Of a stretch of 64,000 nt of DNA, positions 18,909 through 63,074 are shown piece by piece. The position numbers were made by a program, and so were the translations under genes. The stretch comes from a virus. Taxonomy: Duplodnaviria > Heunggongvirae > Uroviricota > Caudoviricetes. Positions within the stretch are counted from its first letter, which is position 1. Each line of letters begins with the position of its first letter. Below the pieces are notes generated by a model. That model was not told the DNA's origin and did not search any database. It was given only the letters and a program-made list of their open reading frames with translations. Location: IMG/VR virus record IMGVR_UViG_3300036768_001066, one strand, 5' to 3'.

Positions 18909-19702
18909 TTTCTTTCAAGTGTTATGTATGCGTAAGGACAAAGAGTCTTGCGCACGAAGCCAAGCATCCAGTCAAAGAACATACCGAGTATCAAAATCAT
19001 TATCTGGATAGCGTAAACCGCATCGAGGTGGAATACTTTGTTCTGGTCGTTGAGTATCACACCGATACCGCCTTCCGACCGGCATAGGTTCTCTACCATT
19101 GCAAGCATCATCCACGCAATCGCAAAGTTCTGTCGTATCACATCAAGGACCTGGTCCGCCTTTCCGAGTATGATGACTTCCCACACCGTCTCCCACTCAC
19201 TCTTCTTGAGTGTTCTCGCGTAGTCAAGCTCCGCCTTGGTAACACTCGATATGATTGCCGAGATGGACGTAACGTGAAATACAGTTATGCCGAACACGAG
19301 CAGCGCCACCTTCTGTGACGTGGTGTCCTTGCATATAAGGGCAAATAGGAAAGTTAAGCCTATAGTTGTCATGAATCTCGCCTTACCAACGAACGCCGTG
19401 AACGGCCGGAAGAAAGGCATGACTGCCAGGTATGCTATCACCAATGATATGATGGTGGCCCAGAACATTCCCTTAGCGCATAGCCAGATACTCGACAGGA
19501 GCTCTGCGAGAAATCCGTTAGCGAATAAACCCTTGGTAGCTTCCCATATATTTGGTAAACTCGGGAGGAGTTGTGTGTGACTGAACGTCCAGTATATTAG
19601 GACGGTCGCCACCCATATTGTCAACACCAGGAGCTGCTTGTTTTGTTTGAGCTGCTTGTTTGGCGTGAATATGTCTTTGATGAATGCTGTAACTTTATTC
19701 AT
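18905..19702 (-). CDS. ABC transporter permease (binding-protein-dependent inner-membrane component)
   Basis: Six hydrophobic segments. EAA-like loop ELDYARTLKKSEWETVWEVIILGKA. The start is set at ATG 19702 (MNKVTAFIKD...) because the longer frame would run through the upstream terminator. Confidence 0.75.
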   Translation of the reverse strand: MNKVTAFIKDIFTPNKQLKQNKQLLVLTIWVATVLIYWTFSHTQLLPSLPNIWEATKGLFANGFLAELLSSIWLCAKGMFWATIISLVIAYLAVMPFFRPFTAFVGKARFMTTIGLTFLFALICKDTTSQKVALLVFGITVFHVTSISAIISSVTKAELDYARTLKKSEWETVWEVIILGKADQVLDVIRQNFAIAWMMLAMVENLCRSEGGIGVILNDQNKVFHLDAVYAIQIMILILGMFFDWMLGFVRKTLCPYAYITLERK

Positions 19703-19713
19703 GACGAATGGAT

Positions 19714-19741
19714 AAAAAAGAGCCGGTAAAATACCGGCTCT
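19714..19741 (-). terminator. rho-independent terminator (minus strand)
   Basis: Hairpin AGCCGGT-aaaat-ACCGGCT. On the minus-strand RNA it is followed by UUUUUU (top A6 at 19714-19719). It sits right after the stop of the OmpA-like gene and before the permease start. Confidence 0.55.
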
Positions 19742-19746
19742 CAATG

Positions 19747-20145
19747 TTAACGGCCAAGTTTGATTTCAACACGGCGGTTCTTCTTACGACCCGCATCAGT
19801 GTTGTTGTCCCCGATAGGAGTGGTCTCGCCAAAGCCCTGAGCAGACACCTTGTTACGGAATATCTTCTGGTCTTTGTTGATTAACCACTGACGAACCGCT
19901 TCAGCACGTTGCTGTGATAACTGCATGTTCATTCCATCGTCACCCTGATTATCCGTGTGACCCTCGATGGACACGAGGAGGTTCTCTGCGATAATCAAGT
20001 CGTTTGCCAACTGATTAAGAGTAGGGATAGATGCAGGTAAGATGGTGGCGGAGCCGGTCTGGAACTCGATAACGTACGACTTGTTAGACACAAGCTGCGA
20101 CATCTTCTGGTTCTCCGAGAACGTAGGCATAGAAGCCACTGTCAT
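19747..20145 (-). CDS. OmpA/MotB-family peptidoglycan-associated domain protein
   Basis: C-terminal OmpA-like signature: IEGHTDNQGDDGMNMQLSQQRAEAVRQWL...GFGETTPIGDNNTDAGRKKNRRVEIKL. Start ambiguous; the longer frame overlaps the upstream gene. Confidence 0.55.
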   Translation of the reverse strand: MTVASMPTFSENQKMSQLVSNKSYVIEFQTGSATILPASIPTLNQLANDLIIAENLLVSIEGHTDNQGDDGMNMQLSQQRAEAVRQWLINKDQKIFRNKVSAQGFGETTPIGDNNTDAGRKKNRRVEIKLGR

Positions 20146-21491
20146 GTTGGCGTTGTTTTTATTGTTTGTATACACTGACTGCACGTACTCAAGTCCACCA
20201 CCTCCTCGTAAGGGAAGTACGTAGGCATTACATCCGGGTATGCTTTAACACATAGGTCACCAAAAGTAACATACACGGCTTTGTACTTATCGGTGCTTCC
20301 GTTTAAGCCGTAATACTCCGCAAGGTCCGCAAGGTTGAACACGCGGGATCCACCGATTTCGTTTATGTTGCCCTGCGCATCTGTAAATTGCTTACCTACG
20401 AAGTACTGCTGCCAGTCATCAGCCGTCAAGCCAGCGTCTTGGTATATCGCATCCTGCACACGGCAAGCAAATGCCAATGCCGAAGTGTGGGACTTAACCT
20501 GGTCGCCACCTAAACAACCAGCAAGGATGAATTTCTCAACGCTCGCTTTGTTGTCCTGTAACCACTTCTTACAAGCCAACCACGTGTTAGGCATCTGCGC
20601 ACCATTATCCTTAGTCGAGAATACTGTTACACCACCACGACCCTCGAAACAGATTTTGTCTCCCGGAGTCCACGTAACGCAACCGTCCACTGTGACAGTT
20701 GTATCTCGGCCTGTCCTTTTACCATTGATAACGATAGGACGCTTCTCAGTGGTCTTAGACACGTAGATTTGGGCTGCTTTAATGTAGTCATCGATACCCA
20801 TCCAGTTGATGGCCGTAGGGTCGTACGTGGTAGGGTCGTTGTTGACGTCAATACCGTTAAGGTCGGCATACTTCATTAGAATATTCCAGTCGCCGTCACG
20901 CAACACACCAACCCAAAGGGAACCGCGCAATTTCTGCGGGTCTTGACGGAAGGAACCATCCTTATAGATGGCCTTGCCCTCACCGAATGAAGCACCGAAC
21001 GCTGTGAACGCCTGAATAATGTAATCGTCACCGAGTTGTTTTTTGATTTGGTCGTTAAGACCTGCGAGATAAGACGGAACCCCGTCTCCCATCCAAGCAA
21101 TCATGTGATAGCCCTTTGACGAGTTCTTGTTTCCGGAAGCGTAGTCCTGCGCGAAGGCGAACAATTGGTTGCCCTGCTCGGTACAGTTGTTCTGGCAGAT
21201 AAGACGCAATTTAACGCCTTGTTCCTCCATGATAGATCCCTTCATTGTTGAAGGACCACCGTTTGCGTAAGCCACACCGGCCTGCGCGTTCCAACCCATG
21301 ATACCCGCTCTCCATTCTGGAACTGCAAGGGTTGTCATTTGTGTAGTGTCGGGGAGCGCACGCTTTGGCGCGTTCGCGTTCTTGTCATACTGCAGTGGCG
21401 GAAGATCCGCTACCGTAATTTGTCCCGACTGTTTTGTTGGTTTTTGGAACCAGCCGAAGAATTTTGTATCCGACTCCAAGGGTTCCACCAA
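20142..21491 (-). CDS. putative periplasmic substrate-binding protein of the adjacent ABC transporter (assignment tentative)
   Basis: 449-aa ORF upstream of and co-oriented with the permease and ATPase. Mixed alpha/beta composition. No transmembrane segments. The listed start is a TTG. No clear signal peptide was found from either the TTG or internal ATGs, so its role is inferred from position only. Confidence 0.35.
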   Translation of the reverse strand: MVEPLESDTKFFGWFQKPTKQSGQITVADLPPLQYDKNANAPKRALPDTTQMTTLAVPEWRAGIMGWNAQAGVAYANGGPSTMKGSIMEEQGVKLRLICQNNCTEQGNQLFAFAQDYASGNKNSSKGYHMIAWMGDGVPSYLAGLNDQIKKQLGDDYIIQAFTAFGASFGEGKAIYKDGSFRQDPQKLRGSLWVGVLRDGDWNILMKYADLNGIDVNNDPTTYDPTAINWMGIDDYIKAAQIYVSKTTEKRPIVINGKRTGRDTTVTVDGCVTWTPGDKICFEGRGGVTVFSTKDNGAQMPNTWLACKKWLQDNKASVEKFILAGCLGGDQVKSHTSALAFACRVQDAIYQDAGLTADDWQQYFVGKQFTDAQGNINEIGGSRVFNLADLAEYYGLNGSTDKYKAVYVTFGDLCVKAYPDVMPTYFPYEEVVDLSTCSQCIQTIKTTPT

Positions 21492-21635: not shown

Positions 21636-22613
21636 TTATTTAAGTAAGTTGGAAAACTCCGTGTTCTTAGTTCCGCTTGCGAAAACTTCGACACTCGAGA
21701 ATTGCCTGAGGTCATCATCGTTCTCCGGGAGGAATAAGGAAGATCCGTTCGCGATGTATTGGTCGAGTAACTCGGTGCCCTCATTTTCCGTCATCTTGCG
21801 TTCAAGATCAAGTGAAGCCATGATGTTCTTCGAGTTCTTCTCGAATTCGTCAATAGCGGCAATCTTCTGAGACAACGATTCTTCGAACGCGTTAACCGAC
21901 ATGCGGTAGATTTTGGCCTCCTCTGTGTTGCCGTTGGCGAACTCCTCGGCTTGTCCAACAGCCTTGGCCATCTCAGACATGGTCTCGTACTGTGTGCGCA
22001 TGCGGTTCACCTCGTGCTTCAGCTTGTCGATACCGAGGGCCCAGTTGGTCTCAAGACGATCGAGGAAGCTGATATTGGCGTTCATCTTAGCGAGCATCGG
22101 TTTGTACACATCAAGTGTCTGCTTGTCGCTCGATGCGAGACTTGAATGGTGATTTGATAGAGTTTTGTCTCCGAGGTCCTTCGCGGCCTTCGCCTTCCTG
22201 AGATTCTCGTCGATGTTCTTAACCAGTCCGTTCATCTGATTTTCCAGCTTAACCTTCTTACCAACAAGATATGTTTTGCTCTTGCGAAGGTTAGCCAGCT
22301 TCTCGATGAGAGTGTCCACATAGCTGTCCATGTACGACAAGAAATCGAGCTTCACGAAAAAAGCTGTGATCTTGCGGCACAGGTTTGTGTATGACATCCA
22401 GATGAACTTTGGGTTCTTCATGACGTACAGCACAAGCATGGCCAACGGCACGCCTATTCCCAGGATCACCCAGATGTTTGTGAGGAAATCGATTATTGAC
22501 GGTGCGATGTAGTTGAAGAGCTTAATACCTCCCCAGATCAATCCTACCGGGATTGCAAGGCGAAGTACTTTCTCCAGCCAATGCGCTTTTTGCAGTTTAT
22601 CTAACGTTTGCAT
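21636..22613 (-). CDS. membrane-anchored coiled-coil protein (325 aa)
   Basis: Two N-terminal hydrophobic helices (LAIPVGLIWGGIKLF..., IWVILGIGVPLAMLVLYVM) followed by a long charged helical region. Confidence 0.5.
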   Translation of the reverse strand: MQTLDKLQKAHWLEKVLRLAIPVGLIWGGIKLFNYIAPSIIDFLTNIWVILGIGVPLAMLVLYVMKNPKFIWMSYTNLCRKITAFFVKLDFLSYMDSYVDTLIEKLANLRKSKTYLVGKKVKLENQMNGLVKNIDENLRKAKAAKDLGDKTLSNHHSSLASSDKQTLDVYKPMLAKMNANISFLDRLETNWALGIDKLKHEVNRMRTQYETMSEMAKAVGQAEEFANGNTEEAKIYRMSVNAFEESLSQKIAAIDEFEKNSKNIMASLDLERKMTENEGTELLDQYIANGSSLFLPENDDDLRQFSSVEVFASGTKNTEFSNLLK

Positions 22614-22634
22614 TTTTATTTATTTTAGGTTTAC

Positions 22635-23176
22635 TTACTGAATGTACTGCTCGATCTTTGTGGAGTTATCGGAAATCTCCTTCACCATGCGCTCGTACGT
22701 TGCGTTGAAGTCTGCGTGCTTCAACTTGAGACGGTTGGTCTCCTCACCAATCTCAGTTGTCAGCTTGGCGATGGTCTCGCCGTTCTTCATCTTCTTCTCG
22801 ACGAGCTTCTGCATCTCCTCGTCCAGCTTCTGGTTCTCCTCAGTCAGTCTCGCAACCTCGGTCTCGCGCTTGCCGACGGTCTCGTCGAAGCTCTGCTCGA
22901 GCGCGTCCTCAAACTTCTTCTTCTTATCAGCAAACAACCAATGTACGTCTGGGCGCTCTCGGTCAAGCGCTCTTTGGTGCATCCCTGCGCGGCGAACCCG
23001 GCAAAGATACTCACAAGCTTCATCTGCTCTGGAATGGATTTGAGCGCCGGATTTTCGAGTGCGTTGACGAACTCGAAATAATCGGGGCCCGGCAAGTTCG
23101 CCTCTTTGAATACCTCCTTGAAGTATTCTACGAATTCCGGCGGCTCTGTACCACCGCTCAGATTGCTCGGTGTCAC
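22635..23176 (-). pseudogene. coiled-coil protein gene with probable -1 frameshift near an AAG-repeat (two overlapping ORFs 22844-23176 and 22635-22982)
   Basis: The upstream ORF ends in an Arg/Ser-rich out-of-frame-looking tail (RRRSLRTRSSRASTRPSASARPRLRD). In the other frame those same nucleotides encode the protein-like ADKKKKFEDALEQSFDETVGKRETEVARL. The overlap is 139 nt around CTTCTTCTTCTT (22914-22925). Confidence 0.35.
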
Positions 23177-23195
23177 GATAGGAGTTGTGCTTACA

Positions 23196-23324
23196 TTAGT
23201 ACTTTCGAACGAGGGAATACTCTTGGATACTACCTTGCTTGAAAGAGTTCCATGCTCTGCTGAGGGTGTTCGTACCCTTCGATTCGGGCACGAACACCAC
23301 CAGTATTATGAGGAGCATCCACAT
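23196..23324 (-). CDS. small membrane peptide (start taken at MWMLLIILVVFV)
   Basis: The hydrophobic segment sits only in the C-terminal third of ORF 23196-23435. The upstream part is Arg/Gly/His-rich and probably untranslated. Confidence 0.3.
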   Translation of the reverse strand: MWMLLIILVVFVPESKGTNTLSRAWNSFKQGSIQEYSLVRKY

Positions 23325-23356
23325 TTTTGTAAAGTTAGATAAAAAACGGGCTCCTA

Positions 23357-24109
23357 TTACTGCTCTATGGAATAACCAAGCTTCCTGGCCGCGCCGAGGA
23401 ACGCCTGAATGTTGTCGCTCGTGAACTGGTTGCACACCGCGATGCTGCAGTCAGCCAACTTTATTATTTGCGACTCCTTCAAGAAATAACGCTTGCGATC
23501 CTTCGAAATCTCCTGTGCCTCTTCGAGCTTCTTGAATATCCCATAGCTGCGCAGCAATGCGTCTGGGAACGCGAGCTTCATCTGGTCGTGCTTGATGCCC
23601 TTGTTCGCCTCCACGTGGGCCGTGAGAATAGCATGGACAAGCGGGCCCTTGCCGTACTCGATGCCGTTGAATTTGAAGTTCGAGCGGTCGCGGGCGCCCT
23701 TCGGTCTCACGACCTTCGGTGTGAGGATCTTCACCTTCGCTATCCTGTCGCGGTTCACGCTTTTAGGTTTAGCGTCCGTAGGTCCTCTCTTAGAGCGCGG
23801 ACGGTCCTCGTCATCTCCGAAATCCCCCTCGTCTCCGTTGTTGTCGAGACCCGCGAGGATTCTCTCCATCTCTCTTTGAATGAGCTTCTCTTTGTTAACG
23901 CTTGACTTGTTGGGATATTTCTTGAAATACTCGGCAGCAATCGGCTTATATTCGTCAAGTAACTGGAGGTACTCCTCCTTATTGATGGACATTAGCTCAT
24001 GGAACATTCTCCCGATGCCTGAATTTTTTGGTGTGAGGTTTCCCTCTTTGATTTGAGCGATAGTGCCTGCTATCCGCTCCTTTAAGTTTGCTTCCGATGT
24101 TTCTGTCAT
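23357..24109 (-). CDS. putative DNA-binding protein, paralog B of 17064-17702
   Basis: Shares the C-terminal ~100-aa domain with paralog A. N-terminal helical region plus an acidic/basic linker (GDEGDFGDDEDRPRSKRGPTDAKPK). Confidence 0.55.
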   Translation of the reverse strand: MTETSEANLKERIAGTIAQIKEGNLTPKNSGIGRMFHELMSINKEEYLQLLDEYKPIAAEYFKKYPNKSSVNKEKLIQREMERILAGLDNNGDEGDFGDDEDRPRSKRGPTDAKPKSVNRDRIAKVKILTPKVVRPKGARDRSNFKFNGIEYGKGPLVHAILTAHVEANKGIKHDQMKLAFPDALLRSYGIFKKLEEAQEISKDRKRYFLKESQIIKLADCSIAVCNQFTSDNIQAFLGAARKLGYSIEQ

Positions 24110-24526
24110 GGTTAAATTATGTACTGCTAAATTAGAAACCGCAGATAAAATAAGTGACGGAAAACAGAATAATTACCAACGTGCATTTGTTTGAAACACT
24201 CCGTTATAATGGTGACAAGCGTTTCGGACCAAAATAAAAATTCCGACATAAATGAAAAAGCCCCGAACTGGTATCAATCGGATGTAATTTTTGGGGAGCG
24301 GCCAGGCGACTTTTTCTTTCAAGCTTTCCTTCCAGTTCTCAAATATATGAGGTTCTGCCCATTTGGGCACCAGAATGCAATTCTCCAACAACTTATTGCC
24401 GCCAGGTATCACCACGGCCTTGGTCTTCTATCGGGCGGACCTCACGGTTGTCAAAGTGTCAAGATCCGAATATCGTCTTGCGCATGACAGTGACGCTGCC
24501 GCCGCTCATTTGTGTAGTATTCCATT

Positions 24527-25522
24527 TTACATCGAGTATTTTGAGACGCACAGTCTTTGTCTGACGTGGTCCGCTATATGTTTAACTTTGAATCCGCAAT
24601 CCTTGTACACGACGAACCCCGCGATGGGCACATCCGTCTCAACGCACTTGCATATCTCGGCCATGACCTCGCGCGCCCTCGGGTGCGAGTCCGTCACCGT
24701 AATAGTCTTCACCTTGCCGGAATCGGCCATCTTCGCTACCGAGTTTCCCGGGAGCACTCCATGCGTCGCGACAACATGCACCTCCTTGGCACCTGCCTCG
24801 AGGTACTTCTCGGCCGCACCAATGACGGAACCGCCGGTGCGAATCATGTCGTCGTATATGATGACGATTCGATCCTTCACGTCAGCGTTAACGCTGGTCA
24901 CCTCGGTCTCGCTGCCGCTGATGCGGCGCTTGGTAATAATCGCGCAATTAACTTTCATGTCCTTGGCGAGAGACTCGATCCACTTGGCGCGTCCGGCATC
25001 CGTAGAGCCCAGAACGAAATCGTCTCCGGCAATCTCACGGCAAGCCTCAATAACGAGGTCCTTCGCGTACATGTGAATAGGCTGAACGTTGCCCTCGAGG
25101 TAGTGCGGGAGTCCTTCAGTATGCAGGTCGAGAAACACTATGCGATTTGGTCTTGCTCCGCTCGGAATGGTCGACAACAGCCTCGCTCTCGTCTTGGCCT
25201 TCACGATCTCCCCGGGCTTCAGCGCGCGCTCCATAGTGGAGTACCCGAAGTACGGGATGAACAGCGTGAGCGACTTCGCACCGTGCTTGACGGCAGAGCA
25301 TCCGAGGTCGTACAATTCGAGGGTCTCCTCAGCAGTATATGTGCCTCCGATTATGATGACATCCTTGTCCTCAATATCGGACAGGTTAAACTTGTGGTAG
25401 ATCTCGCCGTCGGCGAAAACTTTTCGTTCCAATCCGCCAGACATAATCGGCGCCTCAACTCTGCGGCCTACTATTTCGCCGAGGAGGTATGCGTAATTGG
25501 TTGTTGAGAAAGCTACGTACAT
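24527..25522 (-). CDS. prs: ribose-phosphate pyrophosphokinase (PRPP synthetase) homolog
   Basis: N-terminal LxxxIxxxLG...FxDGE block (YLLGEIVGRRVEAP...KVFADGEIY). Divalent-cation/ribose-5-P region VFLDLH. PRPP-binding loop IIYDDMIRTGGS. Overall ~320 aa with two Prs-type domains. Confidence 0.85.
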   Translation of the reverse strand: MYVAFSTTNYAYLLGEIVGRRVEAPIMSGGLERKVFADGEIYHKFNLSDIEDKDVIIIGGTYTAEETLELYDLGCSAVKHGAKSLTLFIPYFGYSTMERALKPGEIVKAKTRARLLSTIPSGARPNRIVFLDLHTEGLPHYLEGNVQPIHMYAKDLVIEACREIAGDDFVLGSTDAGRAKWIESLAKDMKVNCAIITKRRISGSETEVTSVNADVKDRIVIIYDDMIRTGGSVIGAAEKYLEAGAKEVHVVATHGVLPGNSVAKMADSGKVKTITVTDSHPRAREVMAEICKCVETDVPIAGFVVYKDCGFKVKHIADHVRQRLCVSKYSM

Positions 25523-25532
25523 ATTGCTGGAA

Positions 25533-25877
25533 TTATAGGTTACTTGGTATTTTGTTTACCTTGACAGTGATGTCATCGAACTTCTCGGCCGCTTTGAGGA
25601 TGCCTGTGACTATATCATTAGGTTCCCAGTAGTCGATGGTCAGTTCATAGTTTGTCAGGTGAACGTTTATTGTGTGGTCTTCCTGGAAGAAACACGCTTC
25701 TTCAAGCCACATTGGAATATCACGCGGCGGTATTTTGCTTGTACAAAGATCAATCAGCTTCTCTTTAGAAGGGTCCTTCATCATGAGCACAACCGAATCC
25801 CTGCAAACAAGCTCGATCCCAGTCTGACCAAGTAGCAACTGAGATACCCTCTCGGCGAGGCCGTTGTTTAATCCCAC
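25533..25877 (-). CDS. hypothetical protein (114 aa)
   Basis: ORF overlapping the next upstream ORF by 10 nt in a different frame. No motif recognised. Confidence 0.35.
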   Translation of the reverse strand: MGLNNGLAERVSQLLLGQTGIELVCRDSVVLMMKDPSKEKLIDLCTSKIPPRDIPMWLEEACFFQEDHTINVHLTNYELTIDYWEPNDIVTGILKAAEKFDDITVKVNKIPSNL

Positions 25878-26161
25878 GACATATTGATCTTTATGGACGA
25901 TGGTTCGGGAAGGACCGCAAGAATGCCCTTGATAGTTTCTAATGATGCTGGTTGTACCGATCTTACCATAGTTTCTAAATTATAGTTGTTTTCGTGAATG
26001 TAAATGTTGTCCTTATACTCCTGCCTGACACGGCTATTGTACATCACCAAGTAAGTTACATCCATTTTGAATTGGTCAACGATATGCTTGACGTCAGGCA
26101 TGTCAGCTATTAAGAATACGTGCTCGAACGGAGACTCCCCGCCTGGAACGGCCACGCGCAC
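25868..26161 (-). CDS. hypothetical protein (97 aa)
   Basis: ORF. Possibly the 5' part of a gene frameshifted into 25533-25877. Confidence 0.35.
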   Translation of the reverse strand: MRVAVPGGESPFEHVFLIADMPDVKHIVDQFKMDVTYLVMYNSRVRQEYKDNIYIHENNYNLETMVRSVQPASLETIKGILAVLPEPSSIKINMSWD

Positions 26162-26224
26162 CTCATCAAACTTCGAGAGTATGCGTCTGGTGATCTGTCT
26201 TCAATATGCCAGAGTCTACTTCCA

Positions 26225-26476
26225 TTACAGCATTACGTTCATGCTGGACAACGGGCCGGTCTCGTTTCTCACAGAAAATTCAACCCCCGAATACATTGTC
26301 TCTACTATAATCGGTCGGCACGCGATGCTCCACGAAAAGAAGTCGAGGCACAAAGGCCTGGACGGCTCTGACGTAAGCAGTGTACGAGGATGGTAAACCG
26401 CTTCCAGAACACCGAGCGTACTGTGATACCACAGCTCAAGGTTGTGCCCATTTATTTCGGCTTTGATTTTATTCAT
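26225..26476 (-). CDS. hypothetical protein (83 aa)
   Basis: ORF in the same frame as 25868-26161. It is separated from it by two stops (TAA at 26225, TAG at 26216). Confidence 0.3.
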   Translation of the reverse strand: MNKIKAEINGHNLELWYHSTLGVLEAVYHPRTLLTSEPSRPLCLDFFSWSIACRPIIVETMYSGVEFSVRNETGPLSSMNVML

Positions 26477-26494
26477 AGAGTAAAGTTACGAATA

Positions 26495-26523
26495 AAAATA
26501 CAAATAAAAAAGGGTCGCTGGAA
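26495..26523 (-). terminator. rho-independent terminator (minus strand)
   Basis: Hairpin GGGTCGC-tggaatt-GCGACCC (26502-26522). On the minus-strand RNA it is followed by a U7 tract (top A-run 26495-26501). Located 34 nt downstream of the stop of gene 26557-26739. Confidence 0.55.
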
Positions 26524-26556
26524 TTGCGACCCTCTTATTTCCGTACGAATAACTGC

Positions 26557-26739
26557 TTAAGAACCCTTCTTGGCATTCTTAGCTGCCTGGATGTCGGCGC
26601 GGCTCTCTTTGCAGAGAACGGCTATCTCCTGCAGGATTCCGCGCGCACGAGTTCCTGCAGAAGCGTTTCCACTTTCAAACTTAGCCACTTCCGGCTCTAA
26701 CGAAGCTACAAGCTCCTTGATCTTTTCGAACTTTTCCAT
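26557..26739 (-). CDS. small basic histone-H1-like / nucleoid-associated protein (60 aa)
   Basis: MEKFEKIKELVASLEPEVAKFESGNASAGTRARGILQEIAVLCKESRADIQAAKNAKKGS. The xGNxxAGTRAR core and Lys-rich tail match the small histone-H1-like proteins common in Bacteroidota. It has its own terminator. Confidence 0.5.
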   Translation of the reverse strand: MEKFEKIKELVASLEPEVAKFESGNASAGTRARGILQEIAVLCKESRADIQAAKNAKKGS

Positions 26740-26772
26740 TGTTTTTGTTTTTTGTTGGTTTTACTTACTTTA

Positions 26773-27660
26773 CTATATAATCGCCATAATTCGCGGCGCC
26801 CTGCGGGCCGCTACGTCGAATTCCTTAACTATCACAGACATCAACCTGCCGCCCGATCCGCACCCACATCCGCAATCGGCGAGCACCACCTGCTTGGGCA
26901 GTCCGCCGTGAACGTAGTTATGTATCCTTGGGAAGTTAATGCCCTGGCTCAACCTGTGGAAGTGCCCGTGAACGGACATCATCTTGTTGTTCGGGGTTAT
27001 GAAGCAGCCGTCGCCCTTCGGGTTGCTGTAGTCGGACTGCCTCCCCCATATAAGGCTGTTGTTCGTGTACTCATTTTTGCTCTGCGGCGCATGACTGAAG
27101 AACAGCGAGTCCGTCTCATGAAACAGCTTGGCGTGCTCTTTCAAGAACGCGTACTCCTCGCTATCGAGTATTTTTCCCCAGTAGACATTAACGTCCTCAC
27201 CGGTCGGTATTCCCATGTTCTCGTTTCTGAGCGGCTCTATATCCGTGGGCCTCGCGCCATACAGCTGGACGCAGGTCTTCCACCCGTGGTTTATCGACCA
27301 TAGGTGCGAATGATACGCCCACTTGCCGTTCTCGAACTGTGTCATCGACATGTCGCCTGTGCCAACGAGAAATGCGTCGTGATTGCCGAACAGGCATATA
27401 GCTCCGTTGTCCACGTACTCCTTAACCTTCATTATGACGGCTCGAGGCTCGGGCCCGCGGTCGATGAAGTCGCCGAGAAACACATACTGGGGGTTGTCCT
27501 TGGACACCTTGTTGTACTTGCGCCATGCCTCGATGGACGCGAGCACCCGCTCCAGCTCGCTTATCTCGCCGTGCACGTCCGCTATACATGCGTAGAACTT
27601 CCCCATCTCCCGCATGGTCTCCATCATCTTTAGCTGTTCTCTGAATTCTCTGTCTTCCAT
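26773..27660 (-). CDS. Ser/Thr protein phosphatase-family metallophosphoesterase (lambda-PPase/ApaH-like)
   Basis: Motifs ADVHG, FLGDFIDRGPE, FGNHD, HGH. C-terminal Cys/Gly cluster CGCGCGSGG. Confidence 0.75.
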   Translation of the reverse strand: MEDREFREQLKMMETMREMGKFYACIADVHGEISELERVLASIEAWRKYNKVSKDNPQYVFLGDFIDRGPEPRAVIMKVKEYVDNGAICLFGNHDAFLVGTGDMSMTQFENGKWAYHSHLWSINHGWKTCVQLYGARPTDIEPLRNENMGIPTGEDVNVYWGKILDSEEYAFLKEHAKLFHETDSLFFSHAPQSKNEYTNNSLIWGRQSDYSNPKGDGCFITPNNKMMSVHGHFHRLSQGINFPRIHNYVHGGLPKQVVLADCGCGCGSGGRLMSVIVKEFDVAARRAPRIMAII

Positions 27661-27941
27661 TACTTTATGTTGTGCACATTCGCGAGCTCTCCGAGGGTCT
27701 TCACCATCTCGTCGAACTTTGTCGGTCTTTCGTTCTTGCAGTACTCAAGGCACCTGACAGCCCTCTCGGATATTGCGCCCTCCGCGTTCTCTGATTGGAC
27801 ATGCCCAACGCACGGAATATCCACCTTTAACTCAGGGTCCGCAAGACCCATCATGGCATCCTTACCATTCGTGGTCGCGTGAAAAAAGGTATCTATCATG
27901 TGCCCGTACTTTCCAGGCGGAACGTAAACTATAGTAAGCAT
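27660..27941 (-). CDS. hypothetical protein (93 aa)
   Basis: ORF with stop/start abutting the phosphatase gene. Contains paired Cys (CVGH...CLEYC). Confidence 0.4.
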   Translation of the reverse strand: MLTIVYVPPGKYGHMIDTFFHATTNGKDAMMGLADPELKVDIPCVGHVQSENAEGAISERAVRCLEYCKNERPTKFDEMVKTLGELANVHNIK

Positions 27942-27968
27942 TTTATATCGTGTTTGTGTGTTTTAGTT

Positions 27969-28736
27969 TCAGTCCATTATCAACTCAAGTATCTGCTGAT
28001 AGTGCCACCTGCTCAGCAAGTACAGCATGTCAGTGCCGAACTGCACGCCATCCGTCGCCGAGTCTTTCAGCTCCTGGCTCTTGAACCGAATTAGCCGGAG
28101 GTTACGGTTGCTCGAGCTGAATGGGTTGCCCTCTATGGTCAACTGGTTCTCCCTGTACTTGAACGACTTCACCTTCGTCTCGCCGTCTTCGTTCCTCTCT
28201 ATGACCACGTTCTCCGGAAGTATCTCGACGAGCCTGAAGCATGCCGACGTGGGTGCGTAGTAGAAGTGCACCGGGTAATTGTTGAGCCTGCTCGCGTTTA
28301 TGTACGGGAGAACCTGCTCGAGCTTCTTGCCCTCGCCGTCTTCGAACTTGAACAGGTAGCTCTTCTCCGAGATCCTGCCGTACGCTTGCTGGAACTCCTC
28401 GACGATAAGGCTGTGCAAGCCCTCGAGTTCTGCTTCGGTGACCTCGACCGGGTCGGTGGCGCGGAACGTGTCGCCATCGCGCACCTCGTAGAGTTCGGTG
28501 CCCTTACCGTCGTCGTGCTTCATCACCAGGAATCCGCCGACGTAGTGCGAGTCGCCGTGCGATTTCATGGTGTTCACTTTGCACAGCACGTTCTTGCCGA
28601 ATTCCAGGGCGTTGTCCGCGTACACTTTGCCGGTCAGGCATCCGTACCGCTCGAACATTATTTTGCCTTGCTCCATCATTTCCGACTGGGTCAGGTGTGG
28701 TTTTGTCATTGGTGTGTCCATATCAACCTTTATCAT
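27969..28736 (-). CDS. hypothetical protein (255 aa)
   Basis: Co-oriented ORF. No motif recognised. Confidence 0.45.
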   Translation of the reverse strand: MIKVDMDTPMTKPHLTQSEMMEQGKIMFERYGCLTGKVYADNALEFGKNVLCKVNTMKSHGDSHYVGGFLVMKHDDGKGTELYEVRDGDTFRATDPVEVTEAELEGLHSLIVEEFQQAYGRISEKSYLFKFEDGEGKKLEQVLPYINASRLNNYPVHFYYAPTSACFRLVEILPENVVIERNEDGETKVKSFKYRENQLTIEGNPFSSSNRNLRLIRFKSQELKDSATDGVQFGTDMLYLLSRWHYQQILELIMD

Positions 28737-29789
28737 TTAATTACCGGCCGCAAATCCCGCTCGTCTTTTCTCTTCCAGTCCCTCGTTTTTCTGGCGCATG
28801 AACCCCACGTTTTTAATTGCGCCTCTTCCGTTCTTCGGACGCTTCATGTCCTCGAAGTGAGCTATCACCTCGTCAAACGCCTTCCCGAGTATCACCACTG
28901 ACACTATGAGTTCCTTTATGTGGGACAAACTAAGTCCGTCAGTGGCGTTCAGCCACTTCTCCATGTCGAGCTCGTCCACATCCTTCTGGTGAAGTTTGTG
29001 TCTTATGAAGTACTCACGAACCTCCCTGTTCGGCGCGTCCACGAGATACACACGGTCGAACCTGCTCGGCCTGTTCGAGATACGCTCTTGAAGTTTCTCC
29101 GGATAGTTGGTAGTTGCAAGATACACGACGTTGTCTATCTGGTTTACACCATCAAGGATGTTCATCAAGGCGGACAGCACGTTTGCACCCGCATCTATGA
29201 CGTTATCTATATCTTCAAGAATAACGACGAGCGGTCGCTCCGGTTCTATCTTCCTGAATTTCTGTGCGAATCCCACGAAAAGCTCGACGCAGTTCACGGT
29301 GTCGAGCGTGATCACGACGCCGTTCTGCTTGACGAGGTCGGATATTATTATCTGCATCATGTACGACTTGCCGTTGCCCGGAGGACCATACACTATGATG
29401 CCCCGCTTGTACACAGTATTATACTCCTTGAACTTGTGCTTGGTCGTCTCCTCCCAGAAGTTCTTGACGTCGTCTATGATCTCGTTGCATTCCTTGATCG
29501 GAAGCCTCAGCAACTTGTCGCTAAGTATAGTGTTGTTCTTGGACATGTATGTCCCAAGGTGTTGTGAGTAGCCGAGCCTGTAGACTCCTGCCGGCACTTT
29601 GCTCCTCGTCTCGTTACACGGAGAGAACACGGTCCCCGCATCGTGTACCGACCATTGCATTTCCGAGGGCTTCTGCTCGCTATCATTCTTGGACTCATCG
29701 ACCTTCCCCTCAATAGGTACTTCGTCGTTTCTTCTTGCATTTCTTCCCATGCTTTCTAATTTGAAAATAGGTTTAACAAACGATGACAT
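28737..29789 (-). CDS. AAA-family ATPase
   Basis: Walker A GIIVYGPPGNGKS. Walker B VVILEDIDN. Second region of homology NRPSRFDR. N-terminal non-ATPase domain of ~120 aa. Confidence 0.75.
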   Translation of the reverse strand: MSSFVKPIFKLESMGRNARRNDEVPIEGKVDESKNDSEQKPSEMQWSVHDAGTVFSPCNETRSKVPAGVYRLGYSQHLGTYMSKNNTILSDKLLRLPIKECNEIIDDVKNFWEETTKHKFKEYNTVYKRGIIVYGPPGNGKSYMMQIIISDLVKQNGVVITLDTVNCVELFVGFAQKFRKIEPERPLVVILEDIDNVIDAGANVLSALMNILDGVNQIDNVVYLATTNYPEKLQERISNRPSRFDRVYLVDAPNREVREYFIRHKLHQKDVDELDMEKWLNATDGLSLSHIKELIVSVVILGKAFDEVIAHFEDMKRPKNGRGAIKNVGFMRQKNEGLEEKRRAGFAAGN

Positions 29790-29932
29790 CCGCCATCACG
29801 CATAATCGTCTAACACCTACCTGGTGACCGCCGCCTCGAACTTAGGCCTTGGTGTGAAGGGCCGCGCTTCTATATCGACGCGCCACAACAATAATAACAA
29901 AAAATCAACGAATTTATTCTTGCCCTGCAGAA

Positions 29933-35557: not shown

Positions 35558-38101
35558 ATGGAAGTAATCGAAACTAAAACAGAGAAAAAATCCTACAGCT
35601 ACGCTGAGGTGCTCGAGAAGGCAAAAAGCTACTTCGGTGGCGACGAGTTGGCGGCGAGTGTTTGGATTAACAAGTACGCATTGAAGGATTCCGATGGCAA
35701 CATCTACGAGCTGACCCCGGAGGACATGCACCGTAGGATTGCGTCGGAGATCGCCAGGGTCGAGGCCAAGTTCCCGAACCCTGTGAGTGAGGAAGAGTTC
35801 TTTTCTCTACTCGATAGGTTCAGGTACATAATACCTCAAGGCAGCCCGATGGCAGGTATCGGCAACAACCTGCAGAAGATTTCTTTGTCCAACTGTTTCG
35901 TGGTTGGTAACCCAGACGGAATGGGTGATTCTTACGGTGGCATCATGAGGATAGACGAGCGCATTGCACAGCTACAGAAGAGGCGTTGTGGCGTGGGCAC
36001 GGACTTGTCCGACATTAGGCCAGCGGGCACTGCCGTCAATAATGCAGCAATCACGTCCACTGGTATAGTTCCATTCATGCAGCGCTATTCGAACACAACC
36101 CGAGAGGTCGCGCAGGATGGGCGTCGTGGGGCACTTATGTTGTCCGTTTCTATCCGGCACCCGGAGTCCGAGGCTTTCATCGATGCTAAGATGGATAGCA
36201 CGAAGGTCACCGGAGCTAACGTTTCTGTGAAGATCCACGATGATTTCATGGATGCCGTACTTGCGGGCCGGATGTACAAGCAGCAGTGGCCGATATACGG
36301 CGATGGGCGCATTCACAAGGAGATCGACGCCGCTGCATTATGGAAGAAGATCATTCATAATGCGTGGAAGTCTGCGGAGCCGGGCGTTTTGTTCTGGGAT
36401 AAGATCATTAAGGAATCTCCGGCCGATTGCTATTCTGCATTCGGGTTCAGGACCGTATCTACTAACCCGTGTGGTGAGTTGCCATTATGTTCTGGCGATT
36501 CTTGCCGATTACTTGCTTTGAATCTTTATGCGTATGTTCGTAATCCGTTCACTCCGGATGCTTACTTCGATTTTGAGTTGTTCGACAAGCACGTTCGCAT
36601 AGCGCAGAGGATGATGGACAATATTGTCGAGCTTGAGCTCGAGAAGATTGATGATATTATAACCAAAATCAAATCTGATCCAGAGAGCGCAGAGATTAAG
36701 TTCAACGAGCTTTCTATGTGGGAGGAGATTCGTCAGAAGTGCGCTAATGGTCGCAGGACTGGAACTGGTGTTACGGCCGAGGGTGATATGCTTGCAGCGC
36801 TTGGACTTCGTTATGGTACAAAGGAGGCAACTGCATTTGCCGAGTCTGTGCACAAGGCACTCGCCATATCCGCATACAAGAGTTCGGCAATTATGGCGAA
36901 GGAACGCGGCGCGTTTCCTATTTATGATGAGAAGCTCGAGGTCAACAATCCGTTCTTGAACAGGCTCAAGGAAGCAGACCCGGAGTTGCGCGAATTGCTC
37001 GCCAAGTACGGTCGTAGAAATATCGCTCTGTTGACCATAGCTCCTACCGGCACTGTGTCTTTGATGACGCAGACAACGTCAGGTGTAGAGTGCGCGTTCA
37101 TGGCTGCGTACATGCGTCGTAAGAAGATCAACCCTAACGACAAGAGCGCGAGGGTCGATTTCGTTGATGAGGTCGGAGATAGCTGGGAGGAGTATAACGT
37201 GTTCCACCACCACTTCAAAACCTGGATGATTGTCAACGGATACGATCCAGATGCGGTTGCTCACATGTCTACCGAGGAGCTCAATAAAGTAATTGAGAAG
37301 TCACCTTACTACAAGGCCATGGCTAATGATGTTGACTGGGTGGAGAAGGTTAACATGCAGGGTGCGATACAGAAATGGATTGACCACTCAATATCGGTTA
37401 CGGTTAACCTGCCCAATCACGTGACGGAGGAACTCGTAAACGAGGTTTACGTCGCGGCTTGGAAGGCCGGCTGCAAGGGTTGCACCATATACAGGGACGG
37501 GTCACGTTCCGGAGTTCTTGTGGAGAAGAAGGAGAAGGAGGAGGACAAGCCTAAGGCCAAGGACAATAATGCGCCTCGCCGTCCGAAGACTCTCGAGTGC
37601 GACATTCACAGGTTCATGAACAAGGGCGAACAGTGGATAGGTTTTGTTGGGCTGTTTGATGGCAGACCTTATGAAGTGTTCACAGGTAAGGCCGAGCACA
37701 TAAAGGTGCCCGGAAAGATCGATACTGGCCGTATACGCAAAACCAAAACCGACAGTGGATCAAAGTACGACTTCATCTACGTGGACAAGGGTGAGGAAGT
37801 TGTGGTTGAGTGGTTGAACAAGTCTTTCGACCCGCATTACTGGAATTACGCCAAGATGCTGTCAGGAATTCTGAGGCATGGAATGCCCCTGCCTTATGTG
37901 GTAGATCTTATCACTTCATTGAATCTCGATGACGAGGTGATAACCACGTGGAAGGGTGGCATCCAGAGGATGATCAAGAAGTACATCCCGGACGGCACTC
38001 GGGCGACCGATAAGAAGTGCAAGGACTGCGGGTCCGAGTCTGTAATATTCCAGGAGGGGTGTTTGACCTGTACTTCGTGTGGAAGTTCGAAATGTTCGTA
38101 A
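35558..38101 (+). CDS. nrdJ: ribonucleotide reductase, class II (adenosylcobalamin-dependent, NrdJ-type) with C-terminal zinc ribbon
   Basis: Active-site NPCGE(L). IAPTGTVSLM block. 847 aa. C-terminus CKDCGSESVIFQEGCLTCTSCGSSKC (Cys4 ribbon). Confidence 0.85.
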   Translation: MEVIETKTEKKSYSYAEVLEKAKSYFGGDELAASVWINKYALKDSDGNIYELTPEDMHRRIASEIARVEAKFPNPVSEEEFFSLLDRFRYIIPQGSPMAGIGNNLQKISLSNCFVVGNPDGMGDSYGGIMRIDERIAQLQKRRCGVGTDLSDIRPAGTAVNNAAITSTGIVPFMQRYSNTTREVAQDGRRGALMLSVSIRHPESEAFIDAKMDSTKVTGANVSVKIHDDFMDAVLAGRMYKQQWPIYGDGRIHKEIDAAALWKKIIHNAWKSAEPGVLFWDKIIKESPADCYSAFGFRTVSTNPCGELPLCSGDSCRLLALNLYAYVRNPFTPDAYFDFELFDKHVRIAQRMMDNIVELELEKIDDIITKIKSDPESAEIKFNELSMWEEIRQKCANGRRTGTGVTAEGDMLAALGLRYGTKEATAFAESVHKALAISAYKSSAIMAKERGAFPIYDEKLEVNNPFLNRLKEADPELRELLAKYGRRNIALLTIAPTGTVSLMTQTTSGVECAFMAAYMRRKKINPNDKSARVDFVDEVGDSWEEYNVFHHHFKTWMIVNGYDPDAVAHMSTEELNKVIEKSPYYKAMANDVDWVEKVNMQGAIQKWIDHSISVTVNLPNHVTEELVNEVYVAAWKAGCKGCTIYRDGSRSGVLVEKKEKEEDKPKAKDNNAPRRPKTLECDIHRFMNKGEQWIGFVGLFDGRPYEVFTGKAEHIKVPGKIDTGRIRKTKTDSGSKYDFIYVDKGEEVVVEWLNKSFDPHYWNYAKMLSGILRHGMPLPYVVDLITSLNLDDEVITTWKGGIQRMIKKYIPDGTRATDKKCKDCGSESVIFQEGCLTCTSCGSSKCS

Positions 38102-40371: not shown

Positions 40372-40380
40372 ATATAAGAT

Positions 40381-50137: not shown

Positions 50138-50719
50138 ATGAAAAGGGTAATACTCATCGGTCCGGGCGCATCCGGCAAGGATTTTTTGAAACACGAGCTC
50201 GAACGGAAGGGGTTCAAGTGCTCCGTATCGTTCACGACGAGGCCGCCGAGGCCTGGCGAGGTGGAGGGCGTAAACTATTACTACATATCCGAGGAGCAGT
50301 TTCTGGGGATGATAAATAACGATGAGTTCCGTGAGTGGAACAAGTTCGCCGATAAGTGGTATTACGGCACGCCAAAGAAGCACTTCGACGGCGCCAACCT
50401 GTTCATAATGACCCCGTCGGGGATCAAGGCGTTGACCGACGAGGAGCGCTCGGAATCGTTGGTTATATACATCGACGCGCCCGAGGATGTGCGCAGACAG
50501 AGACTTGCATCAAGGAAGGACGCTGACGACCCGGAAAGGCGTCTTGCTACCGACCGTGCTGATTTTGCCGGGTTCAAGGATTTCGATTGGCACATAACGG
50601 ACCCCGAGTTCAGCGCGGACGAGATGTACGAGAAGATAGAGTCGCACAGACGCTGGTCCATGCTCGCCGACAAAGATCCAAAGGCCGGCAGCACAGTACT
50701 CACAAGACCTCGAAAATAG
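50138..50719 (+). CDS. gmk: guanylate kinase
   Basis: P-loop ILIGPGASGKDFL. Signature SVSFTTRPPRPGEVEGVNYYYIS (TTRxxRxxExxGxxYxF). Confidence 0.75.
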   Translation: MKRVILIGPGASGKDFLKHELERKGFKCSVSFTTRPPRPGEVEGVNYYYISEEQFLGMINNDEFREWNKFADKWYYGTPKKHFDGANLFIMTPSGIKALTDEERSESLVIYIDAPEDVRRQRLASRKDADDPERRLATDRADFAGFKDFDWHITDPEFSADEMYEKIESHRRWSMLADKDPKAGSTVLTRPRK

Positions 50720-61883: not shown

Positions 61884-63074
61884 ATGGAGAATAATGATAA
61901 ACCTAAAGTTGCACTGGCCCTAATCATCAACAAGGATGGTCAGGTGCTGGCCGTGTCGAGGAAGAACGACCTGTACGATTTTGGATTTCCTGGAGGGAAG
62001 GCCGAACCGAATGAGACGCCTGAGGACACACTCCGCCGCGAAGTATATGAGGAGACTGGACTCCACGTGGTCAATCCGAGGTACTTGACCGAACAAACCG
62101 ATGAGCACGGGTACGTATGCGGATTGTTTGTCTGCGATTACTACGCACCCAATAACTATTTCGATCCACATTTGTGGCCGACCAAGAACAACGAGACGGG
62201 CCGTGTCAAGTGGATGGATTGGCCAGAGTTCATTAGGATGTCCAAATCTCACCCTGGATACAACAAGGACGCTTATGAATTATATCAAAAATTCATCAAC
62301 GATTCCAAGCTGCAGGCAGGCAACTACTACATTCACAAAAGAACCGGCGAACTCTACCACATTTTACACCGCACGGATAACGATTGGTTGATGGTGATGT
62401 CGAGCTTCACGTCGAGACCGATAACAATGCCGGCGCAATTCATAGAGAATCGCGTCAAGCTCGCACCCCGCGTAATGTTTGAGTACAGCGCTTCGCGTAC
62501 AGCGGACATGGAGGTGAATCCCGAAAAATACCCGGTTGACGAGCGAGCCATGGTGTTTGCCATAGGCGCGCACAACTCAGTACTTCAAGATTATGACGAC
62601 CACATGTATTCAAAACATTTGTTTGATGTGCTGGATGTCTTTGATAAGTTTTCTCATTTGATACCGGTCAAGTACCACAGGTTGGTAAAGGCTGCGTTGT
62701 GGAACCACGATGTAATTGAGGACACCCGCAAAACGTACAACGACGTCAAGAAGCGGTTTGGCGAGTTCGTTGCCGACGGCGCTTACGCCATGAGCAACGA
62801 CAAGGACAAGAACAGACAGCAGAGAGCCGGGAAGAAGTATTACGATGGCCTACTCGAGTTCGAGTTCGGTGAGTTTAAGAAATTGTGCGACCGCATAGCA
62901 AATGTAACTAACGGCTTGAGGAATGGTAAGATGATCGACGGCTACCGCAAGGAGCAGCCAGACTTCAGGAATAAGCTCAGAAGCGGCGACAAGTACAAGG
63001 AGATGTGGGACTATCTCGATAATTTACTCGAAGGAAAAATTCAACCAATCTTAGAATATGAGCAGCATAGTTAA
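61884..63074 (+). CDS. Nudix hydrolase - HD-domain phosphohydrolase fusion protein
   Basis: Perfect Nudix box GKAEPNETPEDTLRREVYEETGL (Gx5Ex7REVxEExGL) at the N-terminus. C-terminal half has H...HD motif KFSHLIPVKYHRLVKAALWNHDVIEDT plus downstream D residues. Confidence 0.7.
   Translation: MENNDKPKVALALIINKDGQVLAVSRKNDLYDFGFPGGKAEPNETPEDTLRREVYEETGLHVVNPRYLTEQTDEHGYVCGLFVCDYYAPNNYFDPHLWPTKNNETGRVKWMDWPEFIRMSKSHPGYNKDAYELYQKFINDSKLQAGNYYIHKRTGELYHILHRTDNDWLMVMSSFTSRPITMPAQFIENRVKLAPRVMFEYSASRTADMEVNPEKYPVDERAMVFAIGAHNSVLQDYDDHMYSKHLFDVLDVFDKFSHLIPVKYHRLVKAALWNHDVIEDTRKTYNDVKKRFGEFVADGAYAMSNDKDKNRQQRAGKKYYDGLLEFEFGEFKKLCDRIANVTNGLRNGKMIDGYRKEQPDFRNKLRSGDKYKEMWDYLDNLLEGKIQPILEYEQHS

Follow-up and report, generated by a model that had tools for sequence, protein, structure and literature searches.

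A stand-alone Prs-like gene of T4-like giant phages groups with NAD-salvage-linked bacterial Prs paralogs and outside the Adps family

Phage genes for Prs, the ribose-phosphate diphosphokinase that makes phosphoribosyl pyrophosphate (PRPP), are already described, as are the ADP-ribose diphosphokinases (Adps) of phages and a bacterial prs paralog linked to nicotinamide adenine dinucleotide (NAD). Adps, the phage enzyme of the NAD+ reconstitution pathway NARP1, is defined by a remodelled pyrophosphate (PP) loop (C215-S220 in ICP1), a catalytic β-hairpin and the loss of the C-terminal α11-α12 module (PMC13586617), and a Namat gene lies within 10 genes of 97% of Adps (10.1101/2024.02.11.579819). 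The bacterial paralog is known from the nrtR-prs-nadV arrangement, described for example in Cytophaga hutchinsonii; species with this arrangement carry two prs paralogs, and the role of the NAD-linked copy was left unexplained in 2008 (Rodionov et al. 2008, PMC2330246). Here we analyse a Prs-like gene located at 24527-25522 in a 64,000-nucleotide stretch (hereafter the window) of the tailed-phage record IMGVR_UViG_3300036768_001066. By sequence, its product falls in the clade of the bacterial NAD-salvage paralog. What is new is a lineage of T4-like giant phages that carries this third type as a stand-alone gene, together with simple criteria that separate the three types.

The 331-residue product was matched by Pfam PF13793 (Pribosyltran_N, 47.3 bits against a cutoff of 25), PF14572 (Pribosyl_synth, 43.4 bits against 27) and Pribosyltran (33 bits, over its cutoff), by NCBIfam TIGR01251 (ribP_PPkin, 171.8 bits against 113) and by PHROG 619 (Prs). 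An AlphaFold2 model built on 21 homologs (pLDDT, the predicted local distance difference test, 86.4; pTM, the predicted template modelling score, 0.85) superposed in Foldseek over its full length on human PRPS1/2 and on the PRPP synthetases of E. coli, B. subtilis and Thermus, with template modelling (TM) scores of 0.80-0.88. Its sole disordered stretch is an insert specific to the window protein, at residues ~295-305. The annotated start codon is consistent with the N-termini of homologs, and all invariant columns of the 21-sequence alignment are kept. Family matches and fold model therefore agree that the gene is a real, intact member of the Prs family, as the preliminary description of this DNA had proposed. 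TIGR01251 was rejected as a discriminator between groups, since a bacterial Adps-type protein passes it too. No NCBIfam equivalog model was reached by the protein. On the class I model NF002320 it reached 148.6 bits and so missed the cutoff of 297, compared with 429.5 bits for a canonical Prs of Chryseobacterium (Bacteroidota).

Two bootstrapped neighbour-joining trees were built with the window protein, its phage relatives, bacterial homologs, Adps and canonical Prs. The Adps sequences, verified or Namat-linked, were those of ICP1, 7-11, Felix O1-like phage, PaoP5, Kayvirus, Rose5, a Cronobacter phage and a B. thuringiensis plasmid, and the canonical Prs were taken from six phyla, Bacteroidota included. 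In both trees the window protein grouped with neither bacterial housekeeping Prs nor phage Adps, and joined its phage relatives and bacterial homologs in a single clade, to which both trees gave 100% bootstrap support; support for the core phage subclade was 93% in one tree and 100% in the other. The Adps clustered with a Persicobacter sequence (96.5% support), leaving the window protein outside, and the canonical Prs of Bacteroidota clustered with other canonical Prs, apart from the window clade. Group hidden Markov models (HMMs) gave 440.9 bits for the bacterial clade (a model made from bacterial members only), 159 for canonical Prs and 68.8 for Adps. Sequence identities follow the same order: 50-60% to the bacterial paralog clade, 27-32% to canonical Prs whatever the phylum, Bacteroidota included, and 22-28% to Adps. 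In BLASTP, the ICP1 Adps, whose structure has been characterised, was matched at E = 0.002. The nearest non-phage homologs, at 50-60% identity, are proteins of about 303 amino acids from Cytophagales, Chitinophagales and other Bacteroidota. Two signature peptides, YDDMIRTG and GRAKW(V/I)ESL, both present in the window protein, are carried by genomes of at least 596 bacterial species, among them Myxococcota, Planctomycetota and Verrucomicrobiota. A search of a plasmid collection for clade members returned none.

The preliminary description offered a choice between housekeeping Prs and Adps and held that sequence inspection could not separate the two activities. As far as group membership is concerned, this was too pessimistic: because phylogeny, group HMM scores, signature motifs and gene neighbourhood agree, the window protein is placed clearly outside the Adps family. 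These sequence comparisons assign it to neither of the two proposed groups and point to a third, the NAD-salvage-linked bacterial Prs paralog found in nrtR-prs-nadV and pncB-prs-nudix-pncA arrangements. The broad link to NAD metabolism suggested earlier was right in this evolutionary sense.

The protein had also been credited with all the hallmarks of Prs. The KRR loop, the histidine, the DD motif and the FxDGE motif are indeed there; YARQDR, QIQGFF and the C-terminal ES(I/V)SxLF are missing. In window numbering, the flag motif is F36-D38-G39-E40, the regulatory flexible (RF) loop Y94-S95-T96-M97-E98-R99 and the PP loop D175-A-G-R178. The active-site histidine H134, invariant in the clade, aligns with E. 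coli H131, and the catalytic loop K198-R199-R200 with E. coli K194-R195-R196. In the ribose 5-phosphate loop (D224-D225-M-I-R228-T229-G-G-S232), D224-D225 and T229-G-G-S232 align with E. coli D220-D221...T-G-G-T and are likewise invariant in the clade. The extreme C-terminal segment is missing, and the terminal helix (317-326) is retained and aligned with the canonical penultimate helix. Motif by motif, the three types read as follows. The ribose 5-phosphate/PP loop is DDICDGG in Adps, DDMxDTxGT in canonical Prs and DDMIRTGGS in the window clade. The catalytic loop is a short KxR...TGxI in Adps, DKRRxxxNxSEV in canonical Prs and KRR of canonical length in the window clade (KRRxSGxxTEV in the window protein). 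The histidine motif is D(P)HSD, DLHAxQIQGFF and DLHxEG(L/I)PHY, and the RF loop mostly ARxDR, GYARQDR and GYSTMER, respectively. The flag motif is degenerate in Adps, FSDGE in canonical Prs and FPDGE in the clade. The N-terminal β1-α1 is truncated in Adps and present in the other two types; the C-terminal ES(I/V)SxLF is present in canonical Prs and absent from the other two. On the Adps side, the KxR...TG hairpin was found in 8/8 Namat-linked sequences and in the Persicobacter paralog, and DDICDG in seven of these nine. Judged by these residues, the window clade retains the catalytic core and the 5-phosphate loop, differs from both other types in its ATP/regulatory loop, and lacks the allosteric tail.

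We then considered the genes that accompany bacterial members of the clade. In Fulvivirgaceae BMA12 the order is NAPRTase-family gene, Prs-like gene, Nudix gene, isochorismatase gene, and in a Cytophagaceae metagenome-assembled genome the Prs-like gene lies 1.7 kb from an NrtR-Nudix-Nampt group. A Nampt or NAPRT-type gene was present within 8 kb in 30 of 80 bacterial loci (Nampt in 10, NAPRT-type in 20), and in 18 of the 44 loci whose two flanks each extend for 5 kb or more. All 20 NAPRT partners are located less than 300 bp upstream of the Prs-like gene, on the same strand; NrtR was found in 20 of the 80 loci and PncA in nine. These contexts correspond to the nrtR-prs-nadV arrangement of PMC2330246. 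Namat is told from Nampt by an adenine "selectivity clamp", GS-X-Phi-X-Phi-X-Phi-TRD with aromatic X positions (PMC12774641). The 12 Nampt-family partners that cover this region all have GMGG(A/G)LLQKxxRDT, as in human NAMPT, and none has the clamp motif GS(F/Y)xYQxxTRD, whereas the aromatic clamp was found in 7/7 phage Namats. For the Cytophagaceae Nampt partner, the score was 552 bits with human NAMPT and 487 bits with Xanthomonas Nampt, but only about 270 bits with the lowest-ranked "Nampt" entries 9w5x, 9w5w and 9ke8, which we take to be Namat structures. The reverse combination occurs on a plasmid of Persicobacter sp. JZB09 (CP012861.1, 5204-8227), with the order NrtR, Adps-type Prs, Namat-type gene. 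Its Namat-type protein shares 52-53% identity with phage Namats and has the clamp GSFTYQYNTRD, and its Prs falls inside the Adps clade; this locus of a Cytophagales megaplasmid is apparently a bacterial NARP1 under an ADP-ribose (ADPR)-sensing regulator. The pairing is specific: Adps occurs with Namat, and the window clade with PRPP-using Nampt or with PncB. Since the partners of the window clade are of the PRPP type, we infer that the clade makes PRPP from ribose 5-phosphate, and this is the strongest argument in hand.

We consider it probable that the phage gene encodes a feedback-insensitive PRPP synthetase, derived from the bacterial NAD-salvage paralog, which raises PRPP for host phosphoribosyltransferases during infection. 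The product would be an active ribose-phosphate diphosphokinase belonging to a subfamily of its own. Among bacteria (Cytophagales, Chitinophagales, Sphingobacteriales, Myxococcota, Planctomycetota and Verrucomicrobiota), this subfamily would represent a Prs paralog, often co-operonic with NadV-type Nampt or PncB-type NAPRT, NrtR/Nudix and PncA. In the bacterial pathway, a Nudix enzyme would cleave ADPR to ribose 5-phosphate, the paralog would convert this into PRPP, and a phosphoribosyltransferase would use the PRPP to form nicotinamide mononucleotide (NMN) or nicotinic acid mononucleotide (NaMN). An ancestor of the phage lineage probably acquired the paralog once, and passed it on vertically as a stand-alone gene. 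Because it has neither the allosteric tail at the C-terminus nor a canonical RF-loop motif, the enzyme probably escapes the ADP/GDP feedback that limits host Prs. More PRPP would then be available in infected cells for nucleotide salvage and synthesis and for pyridine-nucleotide salvage, with the phage guanylate kinase and ribonucleotide reductase (RNR) acting downstream.

The same motifs admit an enzyme of new specificity, using another diphosphoryl donor or ribosyl acceptor, or a non-catalytic regulator of host Prs comparable to the PRPS-associated proteins, which have the same fold. Changes invariant in the clade do fall at ligand contacts (STMER for ARQDR, EG(L/I)PHY for QIQGFF, Arg228 for Asp), in a clade whose members are uncharacterised. 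However, the Lys/Arg loop, the histidine, the DD motif and the T-G-G-S loop are invariant, which argues for catalysis on a 5-phosphoribosyl acceptor, and the co-operonic PRPP-consuming enzymes suffice as a role for PRPP synthesis. A regulator is further disfavoured by matches to PRPS-associated proteins that are far weaker than those to PRPS. We regard this explanation as unlikely.

The gene sits in the genome of a T4-like giant phage. Among the products encoded in the window are a tail sheath stabiliser similar to T4 gp15, SbcCD-like gp46/47, a DnaB-type helicase and RNA ligase 1. The same Prs-like protein is found on a metagenomic contig of the 0.2-1 Mb class, and relatives with 55-86% identity occur on contigs 36-482 kb long, several of them with genes for T4 gp23 and the prohead protease. 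A conserved block, in which RNA ligase, AAA ATPase and metallophosphatase genes are followed further on by the Prs-like gene and a gene for a 250-residue protein, was recovered in four related loci (L003, L015, L107 and L108). No similar DNA was detected when positions 22000-30000 were compared with 50,697 phage records (INPHARED). Because T4-type genes and a conserved gene order recur in the relatives, we conclude that a lineage of T4-like giant phages has stably inherited the Prs-like gene. Clade members on four further "viral" contigs are not part of the core phage subclade and do not show its synteny: L109 (IMGVR_UViG_3300024262_006558, 389 kb), L110 (a GVMAG contig), L111 and L112, the last two resembling bacterial Nudix/NrtR-prs-nadV operons. 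Either the gene was acquired separately in these cases, or the contigs are cellular DNA that was classified as viral.

Unlike the bacterial members, the window gene and its phage relatives show no linkage to nadV/pncB, nrtR/Nudix or pncA. The preliminary description had recognised no Nampt/Namat-like partner nearby, and this holds for the whole window: tblastn with nine phosphoribosyltransferase (PRT) queries detected no Nampt, Namat or NAPRT gene or remnant (best E 0.23), and a Nampt-family profile HMM run over all six-frame segments of the 64 kb gave no match (best E 1.1). Pfam scans of roughly 60 open reading frames (ORFs) in the window revealed no NMNAT, NadR, PnuC, nicotinamidase, Sir2 or macro domain. 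No PRT gene lies within 10 kb of the Prs-like gene in six related phage loci (L003, L015 and L107-L110). When IMG/VR was scanned with a Nampt alignment, none of the best 80 of more than 577 matches lay on a contig with the Prs-like gene.

These searches bear on the possibility that the protein is an Adps-like enzyme after all, supplying ADP-ribose pyrophosphate (ADPR-PP) to a Namat encoded elsewhere in the genome or to a host enzyme, as a NARP1-like counter-defence against NAD depletion. Phage Prs-like genes are often Adps: tblastn with the phage 7-11 protein matched 1564 phage records, and in 8/8 records examined a Nampt-family gene adjoins the Prs-like gene. The window clade itself is tied in bacteria to the ADPR-sensing NrtR and to NAD salvage, the R96 to T change in the RF loop and the extra Arg228 leave space for another acceptor, the C-terminal tail is missing as in Adps, and the bulk of the genome lies beyond the window. 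Against this stand the 96.5% clade of Adps and Persicobacter that excludes the window protein, the Adps HMM score of 68.8 bits and the BLASTP E-value of 0.002 with ICP1 Adps. The DDICDGG PP loop, the short KxR..TGxI hairpin and D(P)HSD are also absent (cf. PMC13586617), and so is Namat, both from the 64 kb and from within 10 kb in the six related loci. Moreover, the partners of the clade are Nampt of the PRPP type without the adenine clamp, or PncB-type NAPRT, and ADPR would be destroyed by the Nudix enzyme that is encoded in the bacterial operons as well. We therefore hold an Adps-like activity to be quite improbable. Capture from the host of an ordinary, normally regulated housekeeping class I Prs, serving as an auxiliary metabolic gene for nucleotide supply, is very improbable and, by sequence, already contradicted by tree and model scores: TIGR01251 is passed, relatives are named "ribose-phosphate diphosphokinase" in public sources, a canonical-type Prs exists in phages (the prs of Microcystis phage MaAM05 groups with canonical Prs) and the window has nucleotide-metabolism genes, but the protein fails NF002320 where canonical Bacteroidota Prs passes, is far closer in identity to the paralog clade, has its own fully supported clade apart from canonical Prs, and lacks YARQDR, QIQGFF and the C-terminal allosteric motifs.

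Several observations weigh against a PRPP synthetase derived from the NAD-salvage paralog. The partner search spans 64 kb of a contig of 0.2-1 Mb, so that a distant partner gene is possible. The deep branching order of canonical Prs, Adps and the window clade is weak in the distance tree (49.5% versus 15.5%). In the window protein a threonine takes the place of the RF-loop arginine that makes contact with ATP in PRPS and with ADPR in Adps, and an invariant arginine stands where DDMxDT has its aspartate; the specificity for donor or acceptor could be altered by either substitution. In 50 of the 80 bacterial loci there is no PRT gene inside 8 kb, so that the NAD link is frequent and not universal. 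Finally, the status of the clade as a paralog beside a canonical prs is suggested by PMC2330246, by the separate clade of canonical Bacteroidota Prs and by the NCBIfam scores.

A variant of the favoured reading, a PRPP synthetase acting with host phosphoribosyltransferases, would make the gene a one-gene, host-dependent counter-defence that restores NAD+, in effect a fourth, hybrid phage-host type of NAD reconstitution. In this scheme a NADase defence would cleave NAD+, and the resulting ADPR would derepress the NrtR regulon of the host (NadV or PncB). What is still missing and rate-limiting would come from the phage, either a feedback-insensitive PRPP synthetase or an enzyme acting directly on an ADPR-derived acceptor by way of the unusual STMER and Arg228 sites, and NMN and NAD+ could be rebuilt without a phage-encoded transferase. 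We think this variant doubtful.

The coordinates of the Prs-like gene and of the features discussed with it are collected in Table 1.

Table 1. Features of the 64-kb window associated with, or compared to, the Prs-like gene (PRT, phosphoribosyltransferase; L015, a related phage locus).
Feature	Coordinates	Strand	Remarks
Prs-like gene	24527..25522	minus	ATG start; 331 amino acids; intact ORF
Two sigma-70-like promoter matches	25636-25609 (TG extension); 25576-25549	minus	just upstream of the Prs-like start; consensus matches only; consensus may not fit the host
114-residue ORF	25533..25877	minus	no family match; no counterpart in L015; not PRT-like
Frameshifted homolog of the 87-residue gene L015:9732-9995	25868..26225	minus	74% identity; not PRT-like
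83-residue ORF, homolog of the 99-residue gene L015:9433-9732	26225..26476	minus	37% identity; rearranged; not PRT-like
Intrinsic-terminator-like hairpin	26508..26536	minus	11-bp stem with 6 GC pairs, and a T-run; follows the Hc1-like gene; strongest in the region
Ribonucleotide reductase large subunit	35558..38101	plus	nucleotide metabolism; plausible downstream consumer of PRPP-derived nucleotides
Guanylate kinase	50138..50719	plus	nucleotide metabolism
Nudix-HD fusion	61884..63074	plus	Nudix, residues 6-138 (PHROG 1198); HD-type metal-dependent phosphohydrolase, 205-372 (PHROG 990)

Three short ORFs (25533-26476) had been described as lying downstream of the Prs-like gene, with frame disruptions, and as possible remnants of a partner gene. 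The ORFs exist and the disruptions too, but in the minus-strand orientation of the Prs-like gene they lie upstream, and none is PRT-like; for two of them, a related phage has homologous small genes of hypothetical function. The coding sequence of the 87-residue homolog is split by a frameshift near 26183, with residues 1-14 in one frame (26225-26184) and residues 18-86 in another (26182-25976); the listed GTG ORF at 25868-26161 is the downstream piece of this gene. The 83-residue ORF contains, in another frame (26375-26298), a segment matching residues 67-92 of its homolog. An independent assembly (L001) is 100% identical over 2.5 kb (24301-26800), and the frame disruption is therefore real. 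By these comparisons the short ORFs are decaying small phage genes and not PRT remnants. Upstream of both the small ORFs and the Prs-like gene, a boundary of transcription is predicted at the hairpin (26536-26508).

On the other side, the 417-bp gap 3' of the Prs-like gene holds an 80-residue ORF (24173-24415, minus strand), homologous to an 88-residue gene of the related phage, and a second small gene of that phage, of 131 residues, is missing from the window (region compared, L015:10987-11645). Small genes around the Prs-like gene thus turn over fast between close relatives. The gene at 26557-26739 (minus strand) encodes a 60-residue Hc1 protein (histone H1-like, PF07432) with 95% identity in the related phage.

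A Nudix hydrolase at 61884 had been mentioned as a possible part of a NAD pathway. The ORF is present, but it encodes a Nudix-HD fusion whose Nudix domain is nearest to MutT, RppH and Ap4A-type enzymes (E ~5e-7), with ADPR pyrophosphatases reached only at E ~2e-3 or weaker. It adjoins a gene for a Thg1-like tRNA-His guanylyltransferase and is 36 kb away from the Prs-like gene. As it shows no sign of ADPR specificity and no tie to the Prs-like gene, it was rejected as an ADPR pyrophosphatase partner. A look-up of the exact Nudix-HD protein, intended to reach sequence past the right edge of the window, gave no record.

Two groups of genes resemble RNA-repair functions. The first (26773-31174, minus strand) comprises a T4 RnlA-type RNA ligase (29933-31174), an AAA ATPase (28737-29789) and a metallophosphatase with weak similarity to Pnkp phosphatase (26773-27660); the second (60505-63074, plus strand) comprises a hydrolase (60505-61035), the Thg1-like protein (61037-61846; PHROG 4717, 297 bits) and the Nudix-HD protein. 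This gene set may counter tRNA-targeting defences. Elsewhere in the window, positions 18081-20184 (minus strand) encode an ABC-transporter ATPase (275 amino acids), a membrane protein that resembles a permease (BPD_transp_1, weak) and a 145-residue protein with an OmpA domain, a trio also present in the independent contig L001 and an unusual cargo for a T4-like phage. A very large repertoire for glycan and surface modification, with many glycosyltransferases (GT), occupies 15850-17091, 31683-35503, 38552-39688 and 42448-49997. Among its products are a hexapeptide-repeat transferase, two proteins of the GT2 family, of which one is fused to a methyltransferase, an ATP-grasp enzyme, two FkbM methyltransferases, a fusion of GT10 and GT25, a protein resembling GT11 fucosyltransferases, a sulfotransferase that also has a peptidoglycan-binding domain, a GDSL-like esterase and a GT1-like protein. 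A GIY-YIG/NUMOD3 homing-endonuclease-like ORF (40381-40887, plus strand), downstream of the RNR and ATP-grasp genes, falls within the stretch of lowest GC content (0.41 at 40001-42000 versus ~0.49 elsewhere). At 12221-13942 (minus strand), a 573-residue protein combines a strong N-terminal TPM-phosphatase domain (120 bits) with some 420 residues without assignment.

A Prs homolog need not be an Adps because a phage encodes it. Phage Prs-like genes can be sorted into Adps, housekeeping-type Prs and the NAD-salvage-derived paralog by three criteria in combination: the loop motif (DDICDGG, DDMxDTxGT or DDMIRTGGS, respectively), the clamp motif of the partner, and phylogeny. Their use prevents over-annotation of NARP1 in giant-phage metagenomes. 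The analysis also brings to attention an uncharacterised and very widespread bacterial Prs subfamily, and the pairing with PRPP-type Nampt or PncB, set against the Adps/Namat pairing of Persicobacter, makes the substrate question directly testable.

Compared with canonical class I enzymes (E. coli Prs, B. subtilis Prs, human PRPS1), the window protein has the same two-domain fold, the flag motif, the histidine, a KRR loop of the same length and a ribose 5-phosphate loop with Thr and Gly-Gly-Ser/Thr. It differs by YSTMER for YARQDR, (L/I)PHY(F/L)EG for QIQGFF and DDMIRT for DDMxDT, by its low identity and failure on NF002320, and by having no C-terminal ES(I/V)SxLF allosteric/filament segment. 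The prs gene of Microcystis phage MaAM05 is likewise a stand-alone phage gene of the Prs family without a Nampt neighbour; unlike the window protein, with which it shares 33% identity, its product clusters among housekeeping Prs and has retained both YARQDR and the tail at the C-terminus.

With the Adps of NARP1 (SPbetaL1, Bas63, ICP1; 10.1101/2024.02.11.579819, PMC13586617) the window protein shares a phage-encoded PRPS fold, the catalytic Lys and DD, the lack of the extreme C-terminal segment and an evolutionary tie to NAD recycling. In contrast to Adps, it belongs to a separate clade with 22-28% identity, has neither DDICDGG nor the short KxR..TG hairpin, keeps the N-terminal β1-α1, has no Namat neighbour, and has bacterial relatives that pair with PRPP-type Nampt or PncB. 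The closest described system is the bacterial NAD-salvage Prs paralog (PMC2330246). The phage copy differs from it in being stand-alone, with no nadV, pncB, nrtR, Nudix or pncA gene nearby, and in having a short N-terminal insert, a disordered C-terminal insert and a place in a conserved phage block. Nevertheless, the two fall in the same fully supported clade at 50-60% identity, are similar in length and fold, and share the invariant motifs FPDGE, GYSTMER, TDAGRAKW(V/I)ESLA, KRR and YDDMIRTGGS.

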